Below, one piece after another: positions 4,386 to 22,665 of a DNA stretch of 64,000 nucleotides (its first letter is position 1; each line of letters opens with the position of its first letter). A program made the translations under genes and the position numbers. The notes under the pieces were generated by a model. That model was given only the letters and a program-made list of their open reading frames with translations, was not told where the DNA came from and ran no database searches. The stretch comes from Williamsia sp. (GTDB lineage Bacteria > Actinomycetota > Actinomycetes > Mycobacteriales > Mycobacteriaceae): assembly GCF_036566845.1 (NCBI RefSeq), contig NZ_DATCVM010000115.1, positions 26,852 through 90,851 on the forward strand. The letters are read 5' to 3'.

Positions 4386-5006
4386 TCAGATCCATCCGTG
4401 CCTACGGGCGATGAGCGCCGCCTCGTATCGGTTGGACGCGCCCAGTTTGGCCATCGCCGACGACAGGTAGTTACGGGTGGTACCGGCCGACAGATGCGCA
4501 CGCCTGGCTATTTCGTCCACCGATGCGCCGTCGATGGCGAATTCGAGGACGTCGGCTTCACGTGCGGTGAGCACCGTGTCGCCGGTGCTGATCGCTTCGG
4601 CGGCCAGTTCCGGATCCACGTGGCGGCCACCGTTGTTCACCCTACGGATCACAGTGGCGAGAGTGGCAGCCGACGTCGTCTTGGGCAGAAATCCCCGCAC
4701 CCCCGCGGTGAGCGCCCGCTTGAGATAGCCGGGCCGCCCGTGACTGGTGACGATCAGGATGCCGGCACCGGGTGTGAGAGCAAGAAGCTCGGTGGCGGTC
4801 TCGATGCCGTCGAGGCCGGGCATCTGCAGATCGATCACAGCAACGGCGGGCGGTTCGCCGTCGGCCACCCGTCCGCGCCACAGGCTCACGAGTTCCTCTC
4901 CCGAGTCGACATCCGCGACCACGTCGAGGTCGTCTTCGAGATCGAGCATCGCTGCCATCGCGGTGCGGACGAGATTTTCGTCGTCGGCAAGCAGTACCGG
5001 AATCAC
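4386..5006 (-). CDS. NarL/LuxR (DesR-like) response regulator
   Basis: Receiver (LLADDE, IDLQMPG, FLPK) plus HTH (LTAREADVL...TTRNYLSSAMAKLG); start GTG 5006 overlaps the kinase stop. Confidence 0.9.
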   Translation of the reverse strand: MIPVLLADDENLVRTAMAAMLDLEDDLDVVADVDSGEELVSLWRGRVADGEPPAVAVIDLQMPGLDGIETATELLALTPGAGILIVTSHGRPGYLKRALTAGVRGFLPKTTSAATLATVIRRVNNGGRHVDPELAAEAISTGDTVLTAREADVLEFAIDGASVDEIARRAHLSAGTTRNYLSSAMAKLGASNRYEAALIARRHGWI

Positions 5007-6157
5007 TTTTTCTCCCACTGTATTTCGAGAACGAAGGTCTCGCCGTTCCTGGTGGTGTCGAGCCCGGCACCGACGTACGCGAGTCGTTCCGCCAGGCCAC
5101 TGAGCCCGGAGTGATCATCCGGATCACCGACGTGGCCAATCGGGGTTCCGTTGTTACGCAGTGACATTCCCGCGGCACCGATCGTCAGCTTCGCCGAGGT
5201 GGCCGACGAATGCCGGACGATGTTGGTGGTTCCCTCTCGCACCACCCACGCAGCCACCTCGTGGAATTGCGCGGGCACCGCGGCAGGGTCGCCTTCGATG
5301 ACCAGCACACAGCCTGCCGCCGCCAGGAGTGAGCGCGCCCCGGCCACCTCACCGTCGAGGTTGATGTCGCGATAGCCGCGCACCAGCTCACGCATCTGGT
5401 CCATCGATTCGACTGCGAGCGCCTTCACGTCGTCCATCTCCGCCGCCGCTCTGTCACCGGCCCCGCCACGTGAAAGTGTTGCGGCCAGCTCACTTTTGAC
5501 CGCTATGGCGGAGAATCCGCGGCCGACCACATCGTGGAGGTCGCGGGAGAAGCGCAGTCGTTCCTCGGCAACCCGCAGCCGAGCCTCGACTCCCTTCGCC
5601 CGTTCCAGGTCATCGACGACCTCCAGGCCCCACAGCGTCAGCAGTGTGGTTGCGACGAGGAATCCCCCGATGAGGAACATGACCGCAGCCAACCGCAGAC
5701 CTGCGGCCGGAGACGCTCCGAGAGCCGCACCGGAGACGATGCTGATGCCGACGACGATCCACCATCTCCGGCGCAGAAACGAGACGATCGACAGCGTCGC
5801 GAGCAGGGCGGCAAAGATGCCGGTGACACGCGCGGCCTCGACGACGGATTCGGCGGAGGCCACGTTGGCGATGATCGCGCAGATGCCCCAGATCGACAGC
5901 AGAATCGCCGCGCCCGCCGAAAGCGCCCACCGCCGGAACCCGACCGCGGGAGACCCGGACAACGCTGGTTGGGCCTGCACGGCGACGACGGCTGCGGCGC
6001 CGCAGACGACGATGCCGGCCGCAGACCACGGCACCTCGGCGGTGGCCGCCGAAACGACCACCACCGCGGCGATGGCCCCTTCAAGGGTGAGCAACGTGTA
6101 GAGCCGGAACTTCACCGGCCCCGACAGCTCACGCCACCAGGAAGCCACCCGCATCAT
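5003..6157 (-). CDS. DesK-like membrane sensor histidine kinase (HisKA_3)
   Basis: Several TM helices, then RFSRDLHDVVG (phospho-His), REGTTNIVRHS and SGLSGLAERL boxes. Confidence 0.88.
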   Translation of the reverse strand: MMRVASWWRELSGPVKFRLYTLLTLEGAIAAVVVVSAATAEVPWSAAGIVVCGAAAVVAVQAQPALSGSPAVGFRRWALSAGAAILLSIWGICAIIANVASAESVVEAARVTGIFAALLATLSIVSFLRRRWWIVVGISIVSGAALGASPAAGLRLAAVMFLIGGFLVATTLLTLWGLEVVDDLERAKGVEARLRVAEERLRFSRDLHDVVGRGFSAIAVKSELAATLSRGGAGDRAAAEMDDVKALAVESMDQMRELVRGYRDINLDGEVAGARSLLAAAGCVLVIEGDPAAVPAQFHEVAAWVVREGTTNIVRHSSATSAKLTIGAAGMSLRNNGTPIGHVGDPDDHSGLSGLAERLAYVGAGLDTTRNGETFVLEIQWEKK

Positions 6158-6975
6158 CCGCGGTCGTCCCAGCGGAAGGTTGTTGCGACGATTCCGAGCG
6201 CCAACACGGTCCACACACCCAGTGTGGCAAGTGGCTGTGCCATCTCGGCGAAGGTACCCGCGAAATCCAGTGCCTCCTCGGATTCACCGGCGGTCGCCGG
6301 TGTACCTGCCACGCCGAGGGAGATCAGGTCCGACAGGGCCGCGAACGGTGTCCACGTGACCACATCGCCGAGACGGTCGGGAAGGATGTCGCGGATGGAT
6401 TCGAGGCCGATCATCGCGATCATCATCACCGGCAGCGAGGTGATCTGCGCCGCTTCGGCATTCTTGGTCACCGCGCTCGTCGCCAGTCCGAGCAGCGCGA
6501 ACACGATGATCCCGCCGGCCAGGGCAAGGATCAACGCAATCGGGTTGACCGGTGCCGGCGCACCGGCGCCATAGATCACCCCGGAGACGATGACCGCGCC
6601 GATCCCGGTGAGAATCGCGCCGGGCACAGCGGGTGCGGCCTGGATCTGCCAGTCCGCGGCCTCGCCTGTTCGGAGGCGCTTCAGCACACCTTCTCCCCTG
6701 CGAGTCGTGATCATCGACAGCACCGAGTAGTACTGCACGAACAGAAAGGCCATCAGCGCGAACATCTCGAGACCGGTGGTGGTCACCTCGGCCGTGGCAC
6801 CGGACTCGTTGCGGGCGATGAAGAACGTGGCGAGCGGAAGGGCCACCGGGAACACGGTTCCCAACGTCACCAGGGTCTTGTTGCGGACGAACTGCCGGTA
6901 TTCGGCCTTCGCGAGCGCCATGAGAGGGCGTCGGCCGTGGTCGGCGGCAGCGGGGGCGGTGGTGGTGATGGTCAT
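6154..6975 (-). CDS. ABC-2 type exporter permease
   Basis: About six hydrophobic segments; RRGEGVLKRLR motif; coupled by start/stop overlaps to the ATPase and kinase genes. Confidence 0.85.
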   Translation of the reverse strand: MTITTTAPAAADHGRRPLMALAKAEYRQFVRNKTLVTLGTVFPVALPLATFFIARNESGATAEVTTTGLEMFALMAFLFVQYYSVLSMITTRRGEGVLKRLRTGEAADWQIQAAPAVPGAILTGIGAVIVSGVIYGAGAPAPVNPIALILALAGGIIVFALLGLATSAVTKNAEAAQITSLPVMMIAMIGLESIRDILPDRLGDVVTWTPFAALSDLISLGVAGTPATAGESEEALDFAGTFAEMAQPLATLGVWTVLALGIVATTFRWDDRG

Positions 6976-7913
6976 CGGTGTGCTCCGATCATGTCCGGGG
7001 TGAACGCCGAGGATTCGGCAGGGTCGTGTGCGATGTCGAGGAACACCGATTCGAGAGATGCGGCGCGGGCCTCGAAACCACCGAGCCGGAGCCGGTTGGC
7101 TTCCGCCCAGGCCAACACCTCGGACAGGTGTCCTTGCAGGTCATGGGTGTACGCGGTGACGCGGGCCCCGGCATCGATCCGGGCGCCGGGTAGCGGCGGC
7201 AGCGCAAGTCCCGGGTGGTCGAAGATAATTCGCGCCGGATGCTCGTCGACGATGTCCCGGAGCGTGCCACGGCGCGCGATCTGACCTTTGTGCATGATCG
7301 CAATCCGGTCGGCCAGTGCCTCCGCCTCGTCGAGGTAGTGAGTGGTGAGCACCATCGTCACCCCCGATGCCTTCAGATCGGCCAGCAATTGCCATGTCGC
7401 ACGGCGACTTTCCGGATCGAGGCCGGTGGTCGGTTCATCGAGGAACAGCAGCCGTGGCTGCCCCAGGAGAGCGCACGCAAGGTCAACCCTGCGCTTTTCA
7501 CCGCCGGACAGCGCTCGGACGCGCACGTGCGCTCGGTCAGTGAGATTCACTTGCGTCAGGACCGCTTCAACGGTGGTCGGGTTCGAACACGTCCCGCGCC
7601 ACATCTCCAACGTCTCGGTGATCGTGAGTTCGGCCGGCAACCCACCGGACTGCAACATGATGCCCACTTGTGGACGGACGACCTTGCGGTCGCGGCGCGG
7701 GTCGACGCCGAAGACCTCGACGTCGCCGGAAGACGGTGCAACAAGGCCTTCCAGCATGTCGAAGGTCGACGTCTTACCGGCACCGTTGGTGCCGAGCAGC
7801 GCGAAGACCTCTCCCGCAGCGACATCGAGGTCGATGCCCTTGACCGCCTCGAACGCGTCACTGCCCTGGCCATAGACCCGGCGTAATCCGCGGGCGGTGA
7901 TCACGGCGTTCAT
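6972..7913 (-). CDS. ABC exporter ATP-binding protein
   Basis: Walker A GTNGAGKT, LSGGE signature, Walker B LLFLDEPT, H-loop THY; start placed at ATG 7913. Confidence 0.92.
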   Translation of the reverse strand: MNAVITARGLRRVYGQGSDAFEAVKGIDLDVAAGEVFALLGTNGAGKTSTFDMLEGLVAPSSGDVEVFGVDPRRDRKVVRPQVGIMLQSGGLPAELTITETLEMWRGTCSNPTTVEAVLTQVNLTDRAHVRVRALSGGEKRRVDLACALLGQPRLLFLDEPTTGLDPESRRATWQLLADLKASGVTMVLTTHYLDEAEALADRIAIMHKGQIARRGTLRDIVDEHPARIIFDHPGLALPPLPGARIDAGARVTAYTHDLQGHLSEVLAWAEANRLRLGGFEARAASLESVFLDIAHDPAESSAFTPDMIGAHR

Positions 7914-8066
7914 CGCTGACCCCACTTCCGGTCCGAGACGGCGACAACACGGATTGTCAATGGATAGTCGTTCGGTGTTGTGTTCATGACTCCACCCTCG
8001 CCGAGCCCGGTCCCCACCAGTAGTGCGCGCAATCATCAATCCGGCGTGCACTTCTCACGACCTGCC

Positions 8067-8082
8067 GATGACAAATGTCATC
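8067..8082. promoter_or_regulatory. Palindrome GATGACA-AA-TGTCATC, candidate operator for the adjacent NarL-type regulator
   Basis: 7-bp perfect inverted arms upstream of the ABC-TCS operon; the cognate factor is inferred. Confidence 0.45.
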
Positions 8083-8543
8083 TCGCTTTCTCGAGCGGCC
8101 GATGATCGATACCGATGAGCTCGAACCGAGCACCGAAAATTGCATGTGCCCCGACACAAACTCGATGAATGCACTCGCCACCACTGCGAATGTGCCGCCG
8201 GGCGTTCGGAAATGTCGCCGTGACAAAAGCGCGCGCGACCATGATATTCAGCGGCCGACATCTCTCGAAGGCGAAATCAATACCAATTCCCGTCGCCACT
8301 CGTGGCACGCAGAGGCACCTCTGATCGCCTTGTCCCACGACGAGGACCTACTCAATCGAAGGTTTGCGGCAAACCCCACAGTGCAGATGTGTCGTTTGTC
8401 GACAGAATCCGAGTTCACGGCGTCATTCAGACCAGACGCTTGCCCTCGATATTTCTACAAGGCAGGCACCGACCAGGTAACGCGAAAGAAAATAGAACAG
8501 GTTCATGCACGTTTATTTGTTTCTTACGTTTACGATTACCGGG

Positions 8544-10514
8544 ATGACTACGGCACACAGACGATCCATTCGCATATTTGCCGTGGTGGCCACGGTAAGT
8601 CTTGTTGCAATTCCGGCACTTCTGGTTCCCGCGGTGAATGCGGCGCCCGGTGATGGCGGAACACCAGCGCAGGCGCCGGTGGTGGATTTCCGCACGCTCG
8701 GCCGCGATTCGACCGTCGCGATATATGGCCAGGAGGGTGAGACCTCTCTGACCATTCCGGTCCCGCCCGGCCTCACCGCTTCCGAAATACAGGCGTCGGT
8801 GCAGGTACCGCCGAACTTGCAGCGAGCCACCCTCACCGCCACACAGGGCACCGAAACGCTCGCCCGCGTCGAGTTGCCGGTCGGGGCGCCGGCGCCGGCG
8901 CCGATCGCCATCGGATTGCGGGGCGCGGAGATCATCGACAACGCCGTCGATCTCACCCTGCGAACCGACCTGGTCCCGATCAACGGCACCTGCCTCGTCG
9001 ACACCGATCTGCCGGTCGAACTGACCGGTGCCGCGATCAACTTCGCCGGCACCGAGGCGACACCGGAAACCATCGCCGACTTCTTGCCGCCGTTGCTCGA
9101 GAAGCTCACCATCGCCATACCGGCCGCACCCACCCAGACGGAATCCGATGCTGCGGTTGCGCTGACCTCCTCCATGGTGGCCCGATATGGCGCACAACCG
9201 ATCGACGTTGCGGTGGAAGCGCTTCCCGACGGCCAACAGACCCTCGCGACCCCATCCGAGGCTCTCGAGCGTCAGATCACGATCCTCGAACGCCCCGCGA
9301 GCGCCGTGGAACTCGTTGGCTCTGTCGGGGTCCCGACCCTGCTGATCAGCGGGCCGGCCCCTGATCTGACCAACCAGGTCAACCTGCTCACCAGCAATCT
9401 GTCGCGACTGGCGATCAGTTCCAAGGCTGTCGCGGGCCCACTCCGGGTGACCCCTCAGCTGCCCCCGTCGTCGACGACCCTCGCCGACATCGGCGAACCG
9501 GGCCGAAGTGCCACGGCCACAACCAATCCCCAGGTCACCATCGGAATCGATCAGACACGACTGGGTCGGTCCGCGAAGGGCATCAGGGTGAACCTCAAGG
9601 GCTCCTACACGCCGTTGCCACCGAATTATGGCGGGCAGGTGGTGGTCTCGGTCGGTGACACCGTGATCGATCGATGGGCCGCCGAGCCGAATGGGATCGT
9701 CGACACCTGGGTCGACATCCCTGACGACCTCCTGCAGCGTTTCACGGACCTGACCGTGGCGGTCGACGCCGCGGGCAACACCGGCGGCTGCGGCGACAGC
9801 GCCCCGATCACACTCACCATCGACGGCGACAGCCCGGTCGAGAGCACAAACGCGAACCCGCCGCTCCCGACAGGTTTCCAATCGGTCCCGCAGTCGATGA
9901 TGCCGCAGATCGAGGTCGGGATCGGTCCCGACTCCTTCGCCGACACGATTCGGGCGGTCACCATCGTCGAAGGCTTGCAGCGTCTGAGCGCGGTACCGAT
10001 CAGCACCACGGTGGTCCCGCTGGAACAGGCGCTGAGTTCGTCGAACCCGGCGATCCTGATCTCGGCCTCGGGCTGGGATGACAACGAACTGACACTGCCG
10101 GTGAGCAAGCCCGCCTCCGGCCCGATCATGCTGACCGGTGTCGACGGCAACAACACCGAGACGTCGCTGACCCTGGATCCCGATGTGAACTTCGGGTCGT
10201 TGCAGACGGTGTACGACGGTGAGCGCACCATGCTGGTCGCCACCTCGACCGATGTACCCGCTCAGCTGGACCGATTGCTGAACTGGCTCGACGAGGACGA
10301 GGCTCGCTGGGTCACCGTGAACGGCGACGCACTTGTGCAGGCTGCGGATCGAGACCCGATCACCGTGATCACCGACAGCGCGACGCCGCAGCAGCAGTCC
10401 GATGACAACAACGACTCGGCCGTGCGCTGGATCGCTGCGGGTGTACTCGTGGTCATCGCCATCGTGGTCGCGATCATCGTGTTGCGAAGCCGCCGCCGCG
10501 AACCGGGGAGCTGA
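8544..10514 (+). CDS. Secreted, C-terminally anchored protein, BcsB/YdaN/PssE-like polysaccharide-synthesis accessory subunit
   Basis: N-terminal signal-like segment (RRSIRIFAVVATVSLVAIPALLVPAVNA), ~600-aa extracellular region, C-terminal TM plus basic tail (RSRRR); first gene of a GT2 operon. BcsB similarity is from architecture and context only. Confidence 0.5.
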   Translation: MTTAHRRSIRIFAVVATVSLVAIPALLVPAVNAAPGDGGTPAQAPVVDFRTLGRDSTVAIYGQEGETSLTIPVPPGLTASEIQASVQVPPNLQRATLTATQGTETLARVELPVGAPAPAPIAIGLRGAEIIDNAVDLTLRTDLVPINGTCLVDTDLPVELTGAAINFAGTEATPETIADFLPPLLEKLTIAIPAAPTQTESDAAVALTSSMVARYGAQPIDVAVEALPDGQQTLATPSEALERQITILERPASAVELVGSVGVPTLLISGPAPDLTNQVNLLTSNLSRLAISSKAVAGPLRVTPQLPPSSTTLADIGEPGRSATATTNPQVTIGIDQTRLGRSAKGIRVNLKGSYTPLPPNYGGQVVVSVGDTVIDRWAAEPNGIVDTWVDIPDDLLQRFTDLTVAVDAAGNTGGCGDSAPITLTIDGDSPVESTNANPPLPTGFQSVPQSMMPQIEVGIGPDSFADTIRAVTIVEGLQRLSAVPISTTVVPLEQALSSSNPAILISASGWDDNELTLPVSKPASGPIMLTGVDGNNTETSLTLDPDVNFGSLQTVYDGERTMLVATSTDVPAQLDRLLNWLDEDEARWVTVNGDALVQAADRDPITVITDSATPQQQSDDNNDSAVRWIAAGVLVVIAIVVAIIVLRSRRREPGS

Positions 10515-10517
10515 TCG

Positions 10518-12005
10518 ATGTCGGCCGCAGAATCAGGTCTGCTGCCCACCCTGCACCCCGGCTACCGAGTTGCGTTCCGCTGGACGCTGATCGGTGTCGC
10601 CACACTGATCGCGTTCTGGCCGAGCTTTCGCAGTCTCGCAGAGGAGATCGGTTCCGGCAGTCTCATCGGCTACGTACCGGCCATCCCCTTGCTGACGCTT
10701 CTCGCCGCCCAGGGGGTGGCGAGGCGACGCGGCGATGAGCTTCCCATCCACGATCGTCAGATCGACCTCATCGTCGGATTCATGGGCATGGTTCTGGCGC
10801 TTCTCGTCAAAGGTGTACTGCTCGGCCGCTACGCGGACCAGTACCATCTGCTTCGGCTCGACATGCTGGCCCTGTGGTTGTTCGTGGTCAGTGCGTCGGT
10901 GACGATGTTCGGCCTGCGCCCCGTCGCCCGATTCGCCTGGGTCTGGCTGCTGCTCCTCGCGGTGTTCCCGATCGGCTTCCGGCTCCTGATCATATCGCTG
11001 GGCGGAACCCGGTATGCGGCAGGATTTGTCATGGTCCTGCTGGCGGCGGCGGCCACCGCCCTTGCGGTCGGACGGACCCGGCGCCGCGCACTGCTGGGCG
11101 CTGCGGCCACCACCGCGCTCGGCTGCGCGATCGTGATCCTGATGATGCTGCTCTACCCGGACGTACGGGTCGTGGCGTACGAACTGATCCCATCGTTGAC
11201 GGCCGCCATTGTGGTGTGCTCGTGGATGTACCTGCAAGCGCGGCGTGGTGAGACGAAAGCGCCGCTGAACAGGCCGATAAACTCGTTGTCGGCGAAGACA
11301 ATCCAGCTCGGCGGTGCCATGGTGCTGGTGTTCGCGGTGTTGTTGTCACTGGTCGGCCTGCCCGCCTCCTCCTCGCCTCCGATCCATCGCGAGAATGCCC
11401 TACGCTTCGGCACACCGCTGATCGCACCGGTCGGCTGGCAAATCACCGACGTCACCGAGTTCAGCTTCGTCAAACGATTTTTCGGGCGCAATTCAACCCT
11501 GATTCGCCAATACCTCGTGGCGGACGAGGGAAATCCGGCGTGGGACAAGCTGTCGCGTCCGCGCACCGTGGTCATGGACAGCGTCGTATCCCGGCGGCCG
11601 ATCGTCTTCAAGGTCTACCCCGACAACGTCATCTATGACATGAGGGCGAGCCGGATCAGCCAGGGCCGCAAGATCGATCTCGGCAACGACATCATCGGTG
11701 AGCTCTTCACCGTCCTCGACGACACCCTGCACGTGACGTGGACGAAACTGACGTGGACATGGCAGAACGCCACCCAGGCCCAACGTGTCACCCTGCTGTC
11801 GGTTGACAACCACGATCCCGGTGCACCTTTCCCCGAACCACAGGATGCGCTGGTCGCCAACCTCAATACCGTGTTCTCCGTTCTCATCCGCGGCAATTCG
11901 GTGGTGACCAACAAAGACCCCAACTTCAAGGACGCCGGGATGCTGACCATGCTCGGACGAGATCTGGTGGCCACGCAGATCGACTCGGCGAAGGAAAAGT
12001 CATGA
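10518..12005 (+). CDS. Polytopic membrane protein, exosortase (EpsH)-like N-terminus with soluble C-terminal domain
   Basis: About 9 TM segments followed by a ~200-aa soluble domain; N-terminal spacing resembles EpsH but no ACSG-type catalytic Cys motif is visible. Confidence 0.45.
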   Translation: MSAAESGLLPTLHPGYRVAFRWTLIGVATLIAFWPSFRSLAEEIGSGSLIGYVPAIPLLTLLAAQGVARRRGDELPIHDRQIDLIVGFMGMVLALLVKGVLLGRYADQYHLLRLDMLALWLFVVSASVTMFGLRPVARFAWVWLLLLAVFPIGFRLLIISLGGTRYAAGFVMVLLAAAATALAVGRTRRRALLGAAATTALGCAIVILMMLLYPDVRVVAYELIPSLTAAIVVCSWMYLQARRGETKAPLNRPINSLSAKTIQLGGAMVLVFAVLLSLVGLPASSSPPIHRENALRFGTPLIAPVGWQITDVTEFSFVKRFFGRNSTLIRQYLVADEGNPAWDKLSRPRTVVMDSVVSRRPIVFKVYPDNVIYDMRASRISQGRKIDLGNDIIGELFTVLDDTLHVTWTKLTWTWQNATQAQRVTLLSVDNHDPGAPFPEPQDALVANLNTVFSVLIRGNSVVTNKDPNFKDAGMLTMLGRDLVATQIDSAKEKS

Positions 12006-13540
12006 TCGAGCCCAACGGATCCGGCCGGCCCCACAACGTCGGGATGACCACCGAAGGGATGGACCCCGACAGCGACGAATTCAAGGAAACGGCGCTGTTC
12101 GACGCGATCGAGGGTCTTCGCGCAGTCGACCCGTTGCGATCAGCATCCACCGCGGTCGTCGGTTGGCAGAAGGCGGTCCTGATCGGGTTCTGCGTGGTGG
12201 TGATCGGGTGTGCCATATGGCAACCCACCGCCACCGTGACGTTCCTGATCGGGCTCTGCACCCTGTTCTACGTGTGGTCGATGTCGGACCGGCTGGTGCT
12301 CTTCCGGCGTGGACTCGCGTCGGGCCCGATCACCATCAGCGACGAACGCGCGCGGGCCGTACCCGATTCCGAGCTCCCGACGTACACGATCCTGGTGCCG
12401 GCCTACAACGAACCGGAGGTGGTCGCCGACCTCATCGGGGCGATGGCCGCACTCGAATATCCCGACGAGAAGCTCCAGGTGCTGTTGCTCCTCGAAGCCG
12501 ATGACGAGGTCACGATCAATGCCGCCAAAGCGTGCGGCGACGTGGACACGATCACCATCGTCCTGGTCCCGGCAGCCGACCCACGGACCAAACCCAAAGC
12601 TTGCAACTACGGACTGCACCTGGCGACCGGTGACATCGTCACGATCTACGACGCCGAAGATCTGCCGGATCCACTGCAGCTGCGCAGGGTTGTTGTCGCC
12701 TTCTCCGAAAGTGACGAGACGGTTGCCTGTGTGCAGGCAAAGCTGGCGTTCCACAACGGAAGACAGAATCTGCTCTGCGGCTGGTTCACCGCCGACTACG
12801 GTCTGTGGTTCGGGTACCTGCTCCCCGGACTCATGCGGAGCAAATCCCCGATCCCCCTCGGCGGCACCTCGAATCACCTCCGGCGTTCGGTGCTGCGCGA
12901 GATCGGCGCCTGGGATCCGTTCAACGTCACCGAAGATGCCGATCTGGGGGTCCGGATCGCCGAAACCGGTTATCGCACAGCGGTGATCGACTCCGTCACA
13001 CTCGAAGAGGCCAACAGCGACCCGATCAATTGGATCCGCCAGCGTTCCCGCTGGTACAAGGGATACCTGCAGACCTGGCTGGTGCACGTGCGTCGCCCTG
13101 TCAAACTCTGGAAGGCGATCGGCCCCATCGGCTTCATCCGATTCAGTCTGCTGCTCATGGGCACACCGGTCATTGCGTGCCTGAACCTGGTCTTCTGGTT
13201 GATCACCGTGATGTGGTTCCTGGGCCAGCCGGCCTTCATTCAGGAAGTGTTCCCCTGGTACATCTACTTCCCGGCGCTCATCTCGCTCATCTTCGGCAAC
13301 GGCGCCACGATCTACATGAACCTGATCGCCATTCGTGAGGACGACCGGCCCGATCTGCTGATTCCGGCACTCACCGTTCCCATCTACTGGGTGATGATGA
13401 GCATCGCCTCGGCGAAGGGCTGCTATCAGCTGATCCGGAATCCGTCGTACTGGGAGAAGACTTTCCACGGATTGTCGGTCAAGACCGACGTGAACCCGGA
13501 TGACCCGGCGACCGTGGTGGAGGCAGGCAATGCTCGGTAG
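12002..13540 (+). CDS. Processive GT2 family glycosyltransferase (cellulose-synthase-like)
   Basis: VPAYNE, KPKACNYG, DAED (DxD), GGTSNHLR, TEDADLG, QRSRW (QxxRW); N- and C-terminal TM helices. Confidence 0.9.
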   Translation: MIEPNGSGRPHNVGMTTEGMDPDSDEFKETALFDAIEGLRAVDPLRSASTAVVGWQKAVLIGFCVVVIGCAIWQPTATVTFLIGLCTLFYVWSMSDRLVLFRRGLASGPITISDERARAVPDSELPTYTILVPAYNEPEVVADLIGAMAALEYPDEKLQVLLLLEADDEVTINAAKACGDVDTITIVLVPAADPRTKPKACNYGLHLATGDIVTIYDAEDLPDPLQLRRVVVAFSESDETVACVQAKLAFHNGRQNLLCGWFTADYGLWFGYLLPGLMRSKSPIPLGGTSNHLRRSVLREIGAWDPFNVTEDADLGVRIAETGYRTAVIDSVTLEEANSDPINWIRQRSRWYKGYLQTWLVHVRRPVKLWKAIGPIGFIRFSLLLMGTPVIACLNLVFWLITVMWFLGQPAFIQEVFPWYIYFPALISLIFGNGATIYMNLIAIREDDRPDLLIPALTVPIYWVMMSIASAKGCYQLIRNPSYWEKTFHGLSVKTDVNPDDPATVVEAGNAR

Positions 13541-15227
13541 CCGCCGCCTGAGCGCCATCATCTATCTCGTCACCACAGCGGTCTACCTGGGTGCCGGGTA
13601 CTTTCTCGGTGTCCACCACGGCTTCCTGATGGGCGACGCACTCTCTCGCGTGTCCGCGGCCCAGTCGGTCCTGTTCAGCCGCGATCCGCACGTCGCCGCC
13701 ATCGGCTTCATCTTCACGCCGCTGACCGCGCTGGTACAGCTCCCCACTGTCGGGCTCAGCGGCATCTGGCAGCCGCTGACCGAGTTCGCCTATTCCGGCT
13801 CGATCATGTCCGCGCTGTTCATGGCGGGTGCGGCGGTTCAGGTCTTCGGAATCGGTTCGGACCGCGCGCTTCCCCGCACCTTCACCCTGTTCATCACCGC
13901 GATGTTCGCGTTCAACCCGATGATCGTCTTCTACGCGTCGAACGGTATGAGCGAAGCCCCATTCATCTTCTTCGTGTGTTGGGCGGTCCGCCGCCTGATC
14001 GCCTGGGTCACCGACGACGACGTCCACCACCTCGCCACCGCCGGAATCGCGCTGGCGCTGGGATATCTCACGCGTTACGACGCCGTCGCCGCCATCGCCG
14101 CCGCGTCGATCCTCGTCGGCGCGATCACGGCGACGCGCAGCGCCAAGCACCTTCGCTGGAAGCGCGCGCTGCTCGACGGTGGTCTGATCGCCCTCCCCGG
14201 CTTCTTCGCGTTCCTCGGCTGGGCCGCCACGAGTTGGTTGATCACCGGAGAGGCATTTGCCCAATTCACCTCGCAGTACGGCAATTCGGCGATCATGCAG
14301 CAATCCGGGTCCGGAAAACCCACCGAGTTCGTCCCCGGCCTCGAGTTCGCCATCACCTCGACCTTGATGCTGGCACCGACGCTGATCGTGCTCGCGATCG
14401 GATCCGGTCTGGCCGGCTGGTGGCGACGCGACTGGCTCCCATTGTTGTTCCCGCTCCTCGTGTTCGGCGCGGTCCTCGCCTTCCAGGCGTACAGCTACGC
14501 CAGCGGATCGACCTTCGGATTCCTGCGGTTCTACATCCTCGCCCTCCCGATGGCCGCCACCATGGCGGTGCTCATCCTGCCCGCGCGAGCGTGCACCATC
14601 ACCAAGCGGCGCGGCAGATATGCCCCCCGCCAATCACTCTCCGCCGTCCGTCACCCGACACCGCGTCACATGACCGGCCGGAACCGGGTGTGGCCCGCAT
14701 TTGTCGTCTCGGCCCTCCTCCTCGCGGTCACGGTCCCGAGTTCTGCATGGGCGATGAGCAAACCGAAATACGCGCCGCAGGAATATGCCCTCGGCGCCAT
14801 CCTCGCGCCGGAGCCGGACAACGTCTCCGAACGCAAGGCGACCGAGCATCGCGTCGTCGCGACCTTCTCCACCGAGCGAGGGATCGCACAGTACCTCGAT
14901 GGGCTCAATCTGCCCGAGGGCTCGGTCCTCGCCGACACGGTGTACGGATTCGCGGTGGTGGTCGCCTCGACAAAACCCAAAACCTTTGTGGTGCCCTCAG
15001 ATCAGGACTTCACCGCGATCCTGAACGATCCGGCGTCGAACAACGTCCAGTACCTCCTCGCGGTGCCCAACACCGGGCGAGGCCAATCCGACGCGCTCAA
15101 CATTCGGTATCCGACGCTCTACGACACCGGAGCCGACATCGCCACACTCGCACTCGAAGTCCCCAATGACGGCGAGAACCAGCCGGTTTGGCGAATATAC
15201 CGGGTCCTTGCCGATGTCGAGAACTGA
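13530..15227 (+). CDS. GT-C fold membrane glycosyltransferase-like protein (ArnT/PMT-like)
   Basis: About 11 TM segments, GDALSR early loop, NGMSEAPF and LTRYDA motifs, C-terminal extracytoplasmic domain; start placed at ATG 13530 behind GGAGG. Confidence 0.65.
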   Translation: MLGSRRLSAIIYLVTTAVYLGAGYFLGVHHGFLMGDALSRVSAAQSVLFSRDPHVAAIGFIFTPLTALVQLPTVGLSGIWQPLTEFAYSGSIMSALFMAGAAVQVFGIGSDRALPRTFTLFITAMFAFNPMIVFYASNGMSEAPFIFFVCWAVRRLIAWVTDDDVHHLATAGIALALGYLTRYDAVAAIAAASILVGAITATRSAKHLRWKRALLDGGLIALPGFFAFLGWAATSWLITGEAFAQFTSQYGNSAIMQQSGSGKPTEFVPGLEFAITSTLMLAPTLIVLAIGSGLAGWWRRDWLPLLFPLLVFGAVLAFQAYSYASGSTFGFLRFYILALPMAATMAVLILPARACTITKRRGRYAPRQSLSAVRHPTPRHMTGRNRVWPAFVVSALLLAVTVPSSAWAMSKPKYAPQEYALGAILAPEPDNVSERKATEHRVVATFSTERGIAQYLDGLNLPEGSVLADTVYGFAVVVASTKPKTFVVPSDQDFTAILNDPASNNVQYLLAVPNTGRGQSDALNIRYPTLYDTGADIATLALEVPNDGENQPVWRIYRVLADVEN

Positions 15228-15252
15228 TCGGGAGACACCACACCGGTCGACA

Positions 15253-16416
15253 TCAGGATTGGCCCTGCAGACTCCCGACGACAGTGAGCAGCGGGTCTGA
15301 CGGCCCGATATCGAGGGTGCACTGGTCGGTGCGTGGGTCGGGCACGAACGACCAGAACAGGGCACCGGCCGTACCCGCGGCCCGCTGCGCCTCGACTCTC
15401 GTCTCGAGATCGGTGGCGCGCGCATCCAAGGGGCGACACGACCCGGCCTCCTGTCCGACCTCGGCGACGATCAGCGGCTTTCCCACCGCCTTGGCCTGCG
15501 TGATCCGCCGGGCCAGGCCGTTGTCGGAATCACCCGGAATCGGCACACCCACCGGCCCATAGTCGTGGTAGTCGAGCACGTCGATTCCGTCCGAGCCGGC
15601 GATGAACTCGTACTCCTGGCCCTGTGCGCCACACTGACCGCCACCTGCCAGGCCGGCCCAGACGGGGGTGTCCGGGTCGATGGCCCGCAACCGGGCTCCG
15701 GCCTCGTCGAAGAAGGCCCGCAACACCGCAGCGGCATCTTCAGGACACGTGCGGTCCTGCCACTCACAGGAATCGTCGACGCAGGTGCTGGTCTCCGGCT
15801 CACCCATCAGCTCCCACCCGGCCAGCGAACTCCGGTCGCCCCAGCGGCCGACCGCCGTGTCCAGCCATTGTGCGTAGGTCATCGCCTGTGCACCGGCCAC
15901 ATTCGGGACGGCATCAGGCCCGTCCCACTCGTCCGCATACCAGTCACGATCCTTGAATTCGAGGTCTTCACAAGCACCTTCACCCGACGCCAGCACCGGG
16001 ACCACAAATTGATCGTGCCGCTCGGCCGCGTCGAAGACGGCATCGAGCGGACCGAAGTCGATGAGCCCGGATTCCTTGTCGACGGCCATCGCCGAATAGA
16101 GATCGAACCTGGTGATCGACGGATCGGGCAGCGCCTCGAAATAGTTGTCCAGATCGACCTGGGCCCCGCAGCCCTTGTTGACGGTCCAGTCGGTGCCGAG
16201 CTGATAGGCGTTCAAACCGGTCGGCCACCAGGTGTCGCCGTCGAGCAGGAATCCGTCGCCGGTGGTCTCGACACGCGAACCACGCGGGGGCGTCGTGTCG
16301 GTGGAGCCGCAACCGGCGATCAGGACCGCCGCGGTCACGAACAGAGCCATGACCGTGCGCACCGGTCTGCGCCCGCCCGGCGCGCAGCGGCCGAAGGGAT
16401 TTGGGCGGCTCATCAC
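15253..16416 (-). CDS. GH5 family glycoside hydrolase lipoprotein (beta-mannanase/cellulase-like)
   Basis: Lipobox LIAG-C, WWPTGLNAYQL, WELMGEPE (acid/base Glu), DYHDY, IVAEVG (nucleophile Glu), LFWSF; true start uncertain (16350-16416). Confidence 0.78.
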   Translation of the reverse strand: MMSRPNPFGRCAPGGRRPVRTVMALFVTAAVLIAGCGSTDTTPPRGSRVETTGDGFLLDGDTWWPTGLNAYQLGTDWTVNKGCGAQVDLDNYFEALPDPSITRFDLYSAMAVDKESGLIDFGPLDAVFDAAERHDQFVVPVLASGEGACEDLEFKDRDWYADEWDGPDAVPNVAGAQAMTYAQWLDTAVGRWGDRSSLAGWELMGEPETSTCVDDSCEWQDRTCPEDAAAVLRAFFDEAGARLRAIDPDTPVWAGLAGGGQCGAQGQEYEFIAGSDGIDVLDYHDYGPVGVPIPGDSDNGLARRITQAKAVGKPLIVAEVGQEAGSCRPLDARATDLETRVEAQRAAGTAGALFWSFVPDPRTDQCTLDIGPSDPLLTVVGSLQGQS

Positions 16417-22551: not shown

Positions 22552-22665
22552 CCAGGTCCTGAGTATCAGCCACAAGCCCCGGCTGGCTGATCGGCAACCC
22601 TCCAACCGCGGTGGGGTGCTCCGGGTGACGACCAGGTTGCGGTTCGCCGCGGCAAGCGCGGGTCC
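22552..22665 (+). ncRNA. SAM-IV riboswitch
   Basis: GAGTATCAG...CCCCGGCTGGCTGATCGGCAACCCTCC...GGGGTGCTCCGGGTGACGACCAGG...GGCAAGCGCGG matches the actinobacterial SAM-IV pattern; directly upstream of metY-metX; followed by the hairpin GGGTCCG-N6-CGGACCC (22660-22679). Confidence 0.9.

Follow-up and report, generated by a model that had tools for sequence, protein, structure and literature searches.

The subject of this study is a five-gene locus in a 64,000-nucleotide (nt) stretch of a Williamsia sp. genome (contig NZ_DATCVM010000115.1, positions 26,852 to 90,851), hereafter called the window. A sequence-only reading had described the locus as a candidate synthase-dependent exopolysaccharide (EPS) system, in which four codirectional genes face a convergent gene for a glycoside hydrolase. 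The four + strand genes are labeled A, B, C, and D and the convergent - strand gene is labeled E; their products, with the evidence used for each assignment in parentheses, were as follows.

8544..10514, + strand: A, predicted BcsB-like extracytoplasmic subunit, 656 amino acids (aa) (fold match, transmembrane prediction)
10518..12005, + strand: B, polytopic membrane protein, putative degenerate exosortase homologue (hhalign, motif alignment)
12002..13540, + strand: C, membrane-embedded GT2 synthase, putatively processive, 512 aa (Pfam, PDB matches, motifs)
13500..15227, + strand: D, probable GT-C glycosyltransferase, GT39/PMT_2-like (marginal PMT_2 match)
15253..16416, - strand: E, predicted lipoprotein glycoside hydrolase, clan GH-A, distant GH5 (lipobox, profile search)

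The full open reading frame (ORF) of A spans 8505-10514; the ATG at 8544 gives the 656-aa protein, and a public gene call begins at 8586. A and B are separated by 3 nt, B and C overlap by 4 nt, and the overlap of C and D is 41 nt; with the ATG at 13530 as the start of D, which the orthologues favor, it shrinks to 11 nt. The tight coupling described from the sequence was thus borne out. D and E are convergent, with 25 nt between the end of E and the stop codon of D. The GC content of the window is high (~65%) and its nearest public relatives are Williamsia genomes, with A being 80% identical to its counterpart in W. faeni. The W. faeni record carries the flag UNVERIFIED_CONTAM.

By its motifs and matches, C is a BcsA-like membrane GT2 that possesses all motifs of a processive synthase and lacks PilZ. 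Approximately two transmembrane (TM) segments were predicted on the N-terminal side and four on the C-terminal side. The protein ends ~40 residues past the last TM segment, and its C-terminal YWEKTFH is presumably similar to the FxVTxK gating-loop motif. The full set of D, DxD, TED, and QxxRW motifs attributed to C in the sequence-only reading was found as EADD at residue 165, DAED at 217, TED at 310, and QRSRW at 347, and all 71 of the 71 extracted orthologues carried it. C matched Pfam Glyco_tranf_2_3 with an E-value of 2.3e-29, and a Pfam search for a PilZ domain on C was negative. The best PDB matches were BcsA of R. sphaeroides and E. coli (7e-14 over residues 75-427 with the single sequence and 4.7e-17 with the profile), and these alignments reached past the glycosyltransferase (GT) core into the flanking TM segments. 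C also resembled both the XrtG- and the XrtP-associated GT2 families of NCBIfam; the match to TIGR03111, the XrtG-associated GT, had an E-value of 1.4e-9 and was aligned over nearly the full length. A further match (1.7e-13) was to the GT2 of PDB entry 6yv7, an archaeal mannosyltransferase.

A was predicted to contain a signal or TM segment at residues 11-29 and a second TM segment at residues 629-647, followed by RSRRR, in agreement with the secreted, TM-anchored protein of ~650 aa that had been described. A Pfam search with the window protein gave no match, and PDB sequence searches with the single sequence and the profile gave nothing useful; BcsB became visible only by the predicted fold. 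The AlphaFold2 model, built with 26 orthologues, had a pLDDT of 82 and a pTM of 0.78 and showed two repeats, each of a beta-sandwich and an alpha/beta unit, followed by a C-terminal helix. In a Foldseek search of this model against the PDB, the top 22 matches were all BcsB chains with TM-scores of 0.55-0.63; the best was 9fmt_B (E. coli BcsB; E 3.6e-27, TM-score 0.60, ~680 aligned columns), and 4hg6_B was matched with E 8e-18. The identity to the BcsB chains in these alignments was 13-15%. Furthermore, 8 of the 26 orthologues weakly matched Pfam BcsB (best 5.9e-6), and several public orthologues are annotated as BcsB or "cellulose synthase subunit". As judged from the model, A is a BcsB homologue with the full-length fold, comprising tandem carbohydrate-binding and flavodoxin-like domains and a C-terminal TM anchor. 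The fold of the protein encoded at 8544 had been named beforehand as the test of the proposed BcsB-like partner, and this proposal was confirmed by the AlphaFold2 and Foldseek results.

The product of B was predicted to have ~9 TM segments and then a 210-aa extracytoplasmic C-terminal domain, so that the polytopic membrane protein expected at this position was indeed found. Family and PDB sequence searches with B, using the single sequence and the profile, gave nothing useful. The AlphaFold2 model had a pLDDT of 82, and its C-terminal domain gave weak LpqN-, Mtc28-, and Ups1-like matches with Foldseek. An EpsI-like identity was considered for this domain and rejected, since no family match was obtained. 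A minority of the B orthologues gave weak direct matches to the XrtD, exosortase V, and EpsH models.

The identity of B was approached through a metagenomic contig (L087) that was reached through relatives of D and contains, in this order, an exosortase gene, homologues of C and D, and a GT87 gene. The C and D homologues are ~50% and 33% identical to those of the window, respectively, and a convergent GH5 gene product is 37% identical to E. The exosortase has 539 aa, matches Pfam Exosortase_EpsH (PF09721) with 3.2e-18, and is encoded directly before the C homologue. When the profile of B was compared with this exosortase by hhalign, a probability of 97.8% and an E-value of 1e-12 over 369 columns were obtained, and the motifs IxDRQxDxIxG and FG(L/V)R were common to both. 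The EpsH family is defined by an invariant Cys-x-Gly, Asn-x-x-Arg, and His-x-x-x-Gly located at the outer face of the membrane (PMC1569441). The L087 exosortase keeps this triad as CSG, NVVR, and HPVAG. In B and its orthologues from Williamsia, Mycolicibacterium, Gordonia, and Rhodococcus, the three motifs are missing or substituted, and none of the Cys residues is conserved throughout. On these profile and motif comparisons, B is an exosortase (EpsH) homologue in which all three catalytic motifs have been lost, rather than an anonymous permease. Lacking the three defining motifs, B cannot be a transpeptidase.

Two arrangements outside the window bear on the partners of B. In a metagenome-assembled genome of the Acidimicrobiales (L086, 5385-7964), an exosortase-like domain and a C-type GT2 are fused in a single protein of 859 aa, and the fused domain is again without Cys-x-Gly. 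By the Rosetta-stone argument, this fusion suggests that B and C function jointly, as a single unit. In L087 (4029-6232), the exosortase gene is preceded by a gene for a 194-aa secreted protein whose C-terminus consists of PETP followed by a TM helix and a basic tail, as in PEP-CTERM-like proteins. A TM helix followed by a basic tail is the feature that exosortases normally recognise. In the window, the place of the PETP protein is held by A, which likewise ends with a TM helix and RSRRR; A carries no PEP-like motif, and its match to PVV-CTERM was weak (0.0033). From its position and its C-terminus, we propose that the anchor of A may be bound by B without being cleaved.

E contains a lipobox (LIAG-C-GS). 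The window protein alone scored below the Pfam GH5 cut-off (17.4 vs 23.5 bits). When a profile was built from 25 relatives and compared with the PDB, GH5 endo-beta-1,4-mannanases took all of the first eleven places, including 4awe (1.4e-11), 3ziz (2.4e-8), and 1qno (7e-7). The catalytic Glu pair of clan GH-A, E206 and E319, was invariant in the 25 relatives and aligned with the corresponding pair in 4awe. E carries Gly (G205) in place of the Asn that normally precedes the acid/base Glu in the NEP motif, and this Gly was also invariant in the relatives (GEPE or GEAE), which could hint at an unusual C2 substituent on the substrate. Relatives of E occur widely in Rhodococcus, Gordonia, Nocardia, and Mycolicibacterium and are named beta-mannosidase or mannan endo-1,4-beta-mannosidase by PGAP and JGI. 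By these profile comparisons, E is a GH5-homologous lipoprotein that is nearest to beta-mannanases, not to cellulases.

These properties of E raise the question of whether the product of the locus is a beta-mannan or a mannose-containing beta-glycan. In such a system, C would use GDP-mannose, D would use a polyprenyl-phosphate donor (e.g., polyprenyl-phosphate-mannose), and E would be a beta-mannanase. The PDB matches and public names of E point in this direction, as does the match of C to 6yv7. In L087, the hydrolase has precomputed Pfam Cellulase and GH5_mannosidase domains and the GT87 gene adjoins the D homologue; GT87 enzymes are polyprenyl-phosphate-mannose-dependent mannosyltransferases. 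Against this stand the identity near 20%, at which GH5 subfamily specificity cannot be read, the absence of a GDP-mannose gene from the cluster, and the loss in E of the conserved Asn that recognises the C2 hydroxyl. Moreover, glucans are also cleaved by GH5 enzymes that are close to mannanases, such as TmCel5A (PMC7710045). We regard a mannan or mannose-containing product as a doubtful alternative.

D was predicted to have ~9-11 TM segments and a highly conserved extracytoplasmic C-terminal domain of 150 aa. In the first loop, GD46xLSR is invariant, with G45-D46 lying after the first TM segment. The match to Pfam PMT_2 was marginal (6.6e-6; 26.9 bits vs a cut-off of 26.1). Among 11 orthologues, three matched PMT_2 and two matched PMT, and the Gordonia and Acidimicrobiales homologues have weak precomputed PMT_2 matches. 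NCBI gives the name "glycosyltransferase family 39 protein" to one of the distant homologues. The family of D is large: a threshold of E<=1e-3 gave 1,531 cluster representatives, and 421 remained at E<=1e-30.

Pairs of a GT2 and a GT-C enzyme are the usual layout of extracytoplasmic glycosylation systems. The locus could hence be read as a system of the GtrB/GT-C or CsbB/YfhO type, in which the GT2 loads polyprenyl phosphate and the GT-C passes the sugar on to an acceptor, either a protein (perhaps A) or a glycolipid of the envelope. The PMT_2 likeness of D, which places it near the protein O-mannosyltransferases, would suit this explanation, and so would the large secreted protein encoded by the first gene of the operon. 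Against it, C has QxxRW, TED, and ~6 TM segments and aligns to BcsA beyond the GT core, whereas GtrB-type enzymes lack QxxRW; in addition, a partner with the BcsB fold and a glycoside hydrolase are in keeping with a polymer system. The processive-synthase motifs of C together with the BcsB partner disfavor this explanation, which is the main alternative to a polymer system, and we consider it quite improbable.

The conservation of the locus was examined by a synteny scan with one genome per species, in which 163 loci with a relative of A were found and the best 80 were kept. A, B, C, and D were intact and in the same order in 72 of the 80 loci, comprising 8 Williamsia-type loci and otherwise Mycolicibacterium or Mycobacterium species, and the exceptions were mostly at contig ends. 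The identity between Williamsia and Mycolicibacterium was ~70% for C, ~60% for D, ~50% for A, and ~46% for B. The four codirectional genes are thus kept together in Williamsia and Mycolicibacterium, and they were found again in those Gordonia and Rhodococcus genomes that were examined. The five-gene arrangement noted earlier is confirmed and, given the synteny, is far beyond chance. One Williamsia-like locus (L007, NZ_JNYV01000003.1) is titled Kitasatospora arboriphila; its layout and identity pattern are near-identical to those of Williamsia muralis loci, and the record is probably mislabelled or contaminated.

Rearrangements of the cluster were also observed. In many Mycolicibacterium genomes, B is duplicated (B-A-B-C-D) or lies upstream (B-A-C-D) (loci L015, L022, L024, L031, L040, L041, L043, L060, L066; L048, L050, L057, L068, L070). 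In M. rutilum, the cluster adjoins a sulfatase gene and has the S10 ribosomal operon on one side and the spc ribosomal operon on the other. In Rhodococcus sp. 27YEA15 (L083), the set is rearranged to A-D-E plus B-C; galU, a gene for UDP-glucose pyrophosphorylase, lies between the two halves (9618-10532; 1.4e-120 to 8b31), and a Wzy-type locus with Bac_transf and Wzy_C is adjacent. In Gordonia mangrovi, A-B-C-D are likewise faced by a convergent E. Among the 80 kept loci, E was found with the cluster in the Williamsia group only (8 loci). The possibility that E is a mere backbone neighbor was rejected, since E travels with A-D in the different surroundings of Rhodococcus and Gordonia. E is a genuine accessory of the cluster that is dispensable or can be relocated. 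For the convergent GH5 lipoprotein claimed in the sequence-only reading, the lipobox, both Glu residues, and the linkage in Williamsia, Gordonia, and Rhodococcus were upheld; in Mycolicibacterium the linkage did not hold.

The notion that these genes are chance neighbors or decayed remnants with no joint function could draw on the four of the 80 loci in which A stands alone (L018, L021, L035, and L067) and on the location of E elsewhere in Mycolicibacterium genomes. It is opposed by the 72 syntenic loci, the coupled and overlapping genes, and the ~70% identity of C between Williamsia and Mycolicibacterium, as well as by the re-association of the set after the Rhodococcus rearrangement and the B-C-type fusion in L086. 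We find it barely credible. In L021, the lone A gene is found between the S10 ribosomal operon and genes for glucose-6-phosphate dehydrogenase (G6PD) and a sulfatase, which is the same island as that of the M. rutilum cluster; by this shared setting, L021 looks like an eroded cluster.

The likeness of C and A to BcsA and BcsB suggests a simpler explanation, namely that the locus is an actinobacterial Bcs system without PilZ that makes genuine cellulose (beta-1,4-glucan) and would be the source of the cellulose-like matrix in fast-growing mycobacteria. Mycobacterial biofilms have been reported to contain cellulose-like material with no synthase assigned; putative components of a cellulose synthase are reported for M. 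neoaurum and M. cosmeticum, and M. tuberculosis is stated to have no BcsA or BcsB homologue (PMC6364259, PMC7952908). The genome of M. cosmeticum was among our syntenic loci (L058), and the 80 kept loci included none from the M. tuberculosis complex. The cluster therefore cannot be the missing cellulose synthase of M. tuberculosis. A cellulose synthase would agree with BcsA and BcsB being the nearest solved relatives, with the public names of the orthologues, with the mention of M. neoaurum and M. cosmeticum in reviews, and with galU inside the split Rhodococcus cluster; since galU is a housekeeping gene, its position there may be coincidental. On the other side, C scored 73.5 bits against TIGR03030 (CelA), for which the cut-off is 699.1, and all 71 orthologues of C have LGGTS at the place where BcsA has the FFCGS acceptor motif. 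Furthermore, the hydrolase is neither GH8 nor cellulase-like, its nearest relatives being GH5 mannanases and its NEP Asn being replaced by Gly, and no known cellulose system makes use of a GT-C enzyme. A genuine cellulose synthase is, in our estimation, unlikely.

Taken together, it appears fairly probable, from the sequence comparisons and the predicted folds and in line with the sequence-only reading, that the locus encodes a synthase-dependent beta-glycan machine of the cellulose-synthase type that is adapted to mycolic-acid actinobacteria. A BcsA/BcsB-like core combined with a hydrolase fits a synthase-dependent beta-glycan exporter. GT2 enzymes invert, so that an alpha-linked nucleoside diphosphate sugar would give a beta linkage. 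In the machine that we propose, C would polymerise a beta-linked glycan from a nucleotide sugar at the cytoplasmic face and thread the chain through its own channel. A, anchored by its C-terminal helix, would sit on the outer face and guide the nascent chain. B would be a non-catalytic membrane subunit of the synthase and may hold the C-terminal helix and basic tail of A. D would modify or anchor the chain outside the membrane with a polyprenyl-phosphate sugar as the donor, and E would trim or release the polymer. The hints as to the sugar conflict: the BcsA likeness and the galU neighbor point to glucose, and the relatives of E, the GT87 and GH5_mannosidase of L087, and 6yv7 point to mannose. 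A more specific version of this proposal is that a dead exosortase was recruited as a structural synthase subunit that docks the BcsB-like helix and that, together with the GT-C enzyme, it builds and anchors an undescribed beta-glycan, possibly mannose-containing or C2-modified, in the cell envelope of mycolic-acid bacteria; this version is put forward tentatively, as a suggestion that is less probable than its general form.

Several results weigh against the assignment of the locus to a beta-glycan synthase. C was far below the curated equivalog cut-offs, including those of cellulose synthase, poly-N-acetylglucosamine (PNAG) synthase, and NodC; for NF008558, it scored 48.9 bits vs a cut-off of 992. 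A Foldseek search of the B model against the PDB gave no significant match (best E 0.018), and the TM part was unmatched. The conserved IHDRQxD and FGLRP motifs of B are predicted to face the cytoplasm, which is a poor fit to the binding of A on the outer side. D is probably a GT-C enzyme and is the weakest assignment of the set, resting on marginal PMT_2 matches: PDB sequence and profile searches with D gave no match, and a relation to GT87 was rejected because hhalign of the D profile against the GT87 enzyme was negative. The GT-C-like nature claimed for D thus stood as far as a PMT_2 score just over the cut-off, and neither the PDB searches nor the comparison with GT87 added to it. The four loci with A alone count on the same side, as does the unlinked E of Mycolicibacterium, which in M. 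septicum lies elsewhere in the genome. A search for RNA data with the locus sequence yielded soil-metagenome DNA runs only, four small ones of which hold the window almost entire. Finally, a literature search for BcsA and BcsB of mycobacteria, Rhodococcus, and Gordonia returned review-level mentions and no experimental study.

The locus was compared with characterised systems. It shares with the Bcs core (4hg6 of R. sphaeroides; 9fmt and 9fmv of E. coli) the membrane GT2 motifs, a partner of the BcsB fold encoded in the same operon, and a dedicated hydrolase. It differs in that the synthase is without PilZ, that neither a cyclic di-GMP (c-di-GMP) component nor BcsC is present, that the hydrolase is GH5-like and not GH8, and that a pseudo-exosortase and a probable GT-C enzyme are added; A also has a low identity to BcsB (13-15%), and C is far under the CelA cut-offs. 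BcsC is not expected in an organism without a Gram-negative outer membrane.

The clostridial ccsZABHI system is likewise a Gram-positive one in which a GT2 synthase is accompanied by an extracellular, membrane-anchored protein that binds carbohydrate and by a hydrolase of GH5 rather than GH8 (PMC7710045). CcsA keeps PilZ, and CcsB is stated to be non-homologous to BcsB, the protein to which A is homologous by its predicted fold. CcsZ belongs to GH5_25 and is cellulose-specific, and the system includes MBOAT/DHHW acetylation genes (PMC7710045), in place of which the Williamsia locus has the exosortase-like and GT-C proteins. By analogy, ccsZABHI is the closest characterised Gram-positive counterpart with a GH5 enzyme, and it differs in every accessory part. 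The Listeria pss and Bacillus ydaJ-N systems have a c-di-GMP receptor (PssE and YdaK, respectively) and GH8 hydrolases. Listeria pssA-E/pssZ (PMC4125290) and Bacillus ydaJ-N resemble the locus in their Gram-positive GT2 synthase, BcsB-like protein, and hydrolase; they have no exosortase-like or GT-C subunit, and the locus has neither the c-di-GMP receptor nor GH8.

In the EpsH/Xrt EPS systems (PMC1569441; TIGR03111, NF053846), an EpsH-family protein with 8-9 TM segments and a C-terminal extracytoplasmic extension is encoded beside a GT2, and the upstream gene product ends with a TM helix and a basic cluster, as in the window. The difference is that B is without the triad motifs and A without a PEP-type motif, whereas L087 keeps both an intact exosortase and the PETP-TM-basic candidate. 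Streptomyces CslA-GlxA-CslZ is also an actinobacterial system with a cellulose-synthase-like GT2, a surface beta-glucan, and a cognate hydrolase; its partner protein is the radical copper oxidase GlxA and not a BcsB fold, and it has no exosortase-like or GT-C subunit (PMC11022532).

What was already known of the locus consists of "cellulose synthase subunit" labels at the annotation level and the mentions in reviews. The recognition of B as a putative degenerate exosortase and the exosortase-like/GT2 fusion in L086 are new here, and our literature search found no description of exosortase-derived or GT-C subunits. For fast-growing mycobacteria (the M. fortuitum group among them) as well as for Gordonia, Rhodococcus, and Williamsia, the cluster is the obvious synthase candidate. 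A BcsA/BcsB-like core joined to an exosortase-derived subunit and a GT-C enzyme would link synthase-dependent secretion with exosortase sorting, which had been connected before by gene neighborhood only. If the proposal is correct, the dead-exosortase subunit would represent a new architecture of synthase-dependent secretion and the first role assigned to a pseudo-exosortase.

The upstream flank of the cluster contains two further features.

4386..8051, - strand: divergent module encoding an ABC ATPase, an ABC-2 permease, a HisKA_3 histidine kinase, and a LuxR-type response regulator
8052..8543, + strand: putative leader/promoter region, non-coding, ~490 nt

The interval 8052-8543, which separates A from the divergent ABC-transporter gene, is unusually long, and no long conserved ORF was called in it. 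It contains a weak sigma-70-like site at 8220-8248 and is possibly a regulatory leader. An Rfam search of the 490-nt leader gave no match even at E<=1, and thus no c-di-GMP or other known riboswitch. GGDEF, EAL, and PilZ domains were absent from the flanking genes examined; together with the Pfam search on C, these results bear out the earlier statement that no PilZ or GGDEF region is evident. The absence of PilZ, of a GGDEF gene, and of a known riboswitch suggests that control is probably transcriptional and not exerted by c-di-GMP. The divergent module is not kept beside the cluster in other genera and could be a neighbor only. No terminator was detected between D and E. Downstream of the cluster are genes for a DD-carboxypeptidase and a BrkB-family protein, and trpS. 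Elsewhere in the window, a SAM-IV riboswitch that is unrelated to the cluster was detected at 22555-22664 on the + strand as a full-length match with 105 bits.

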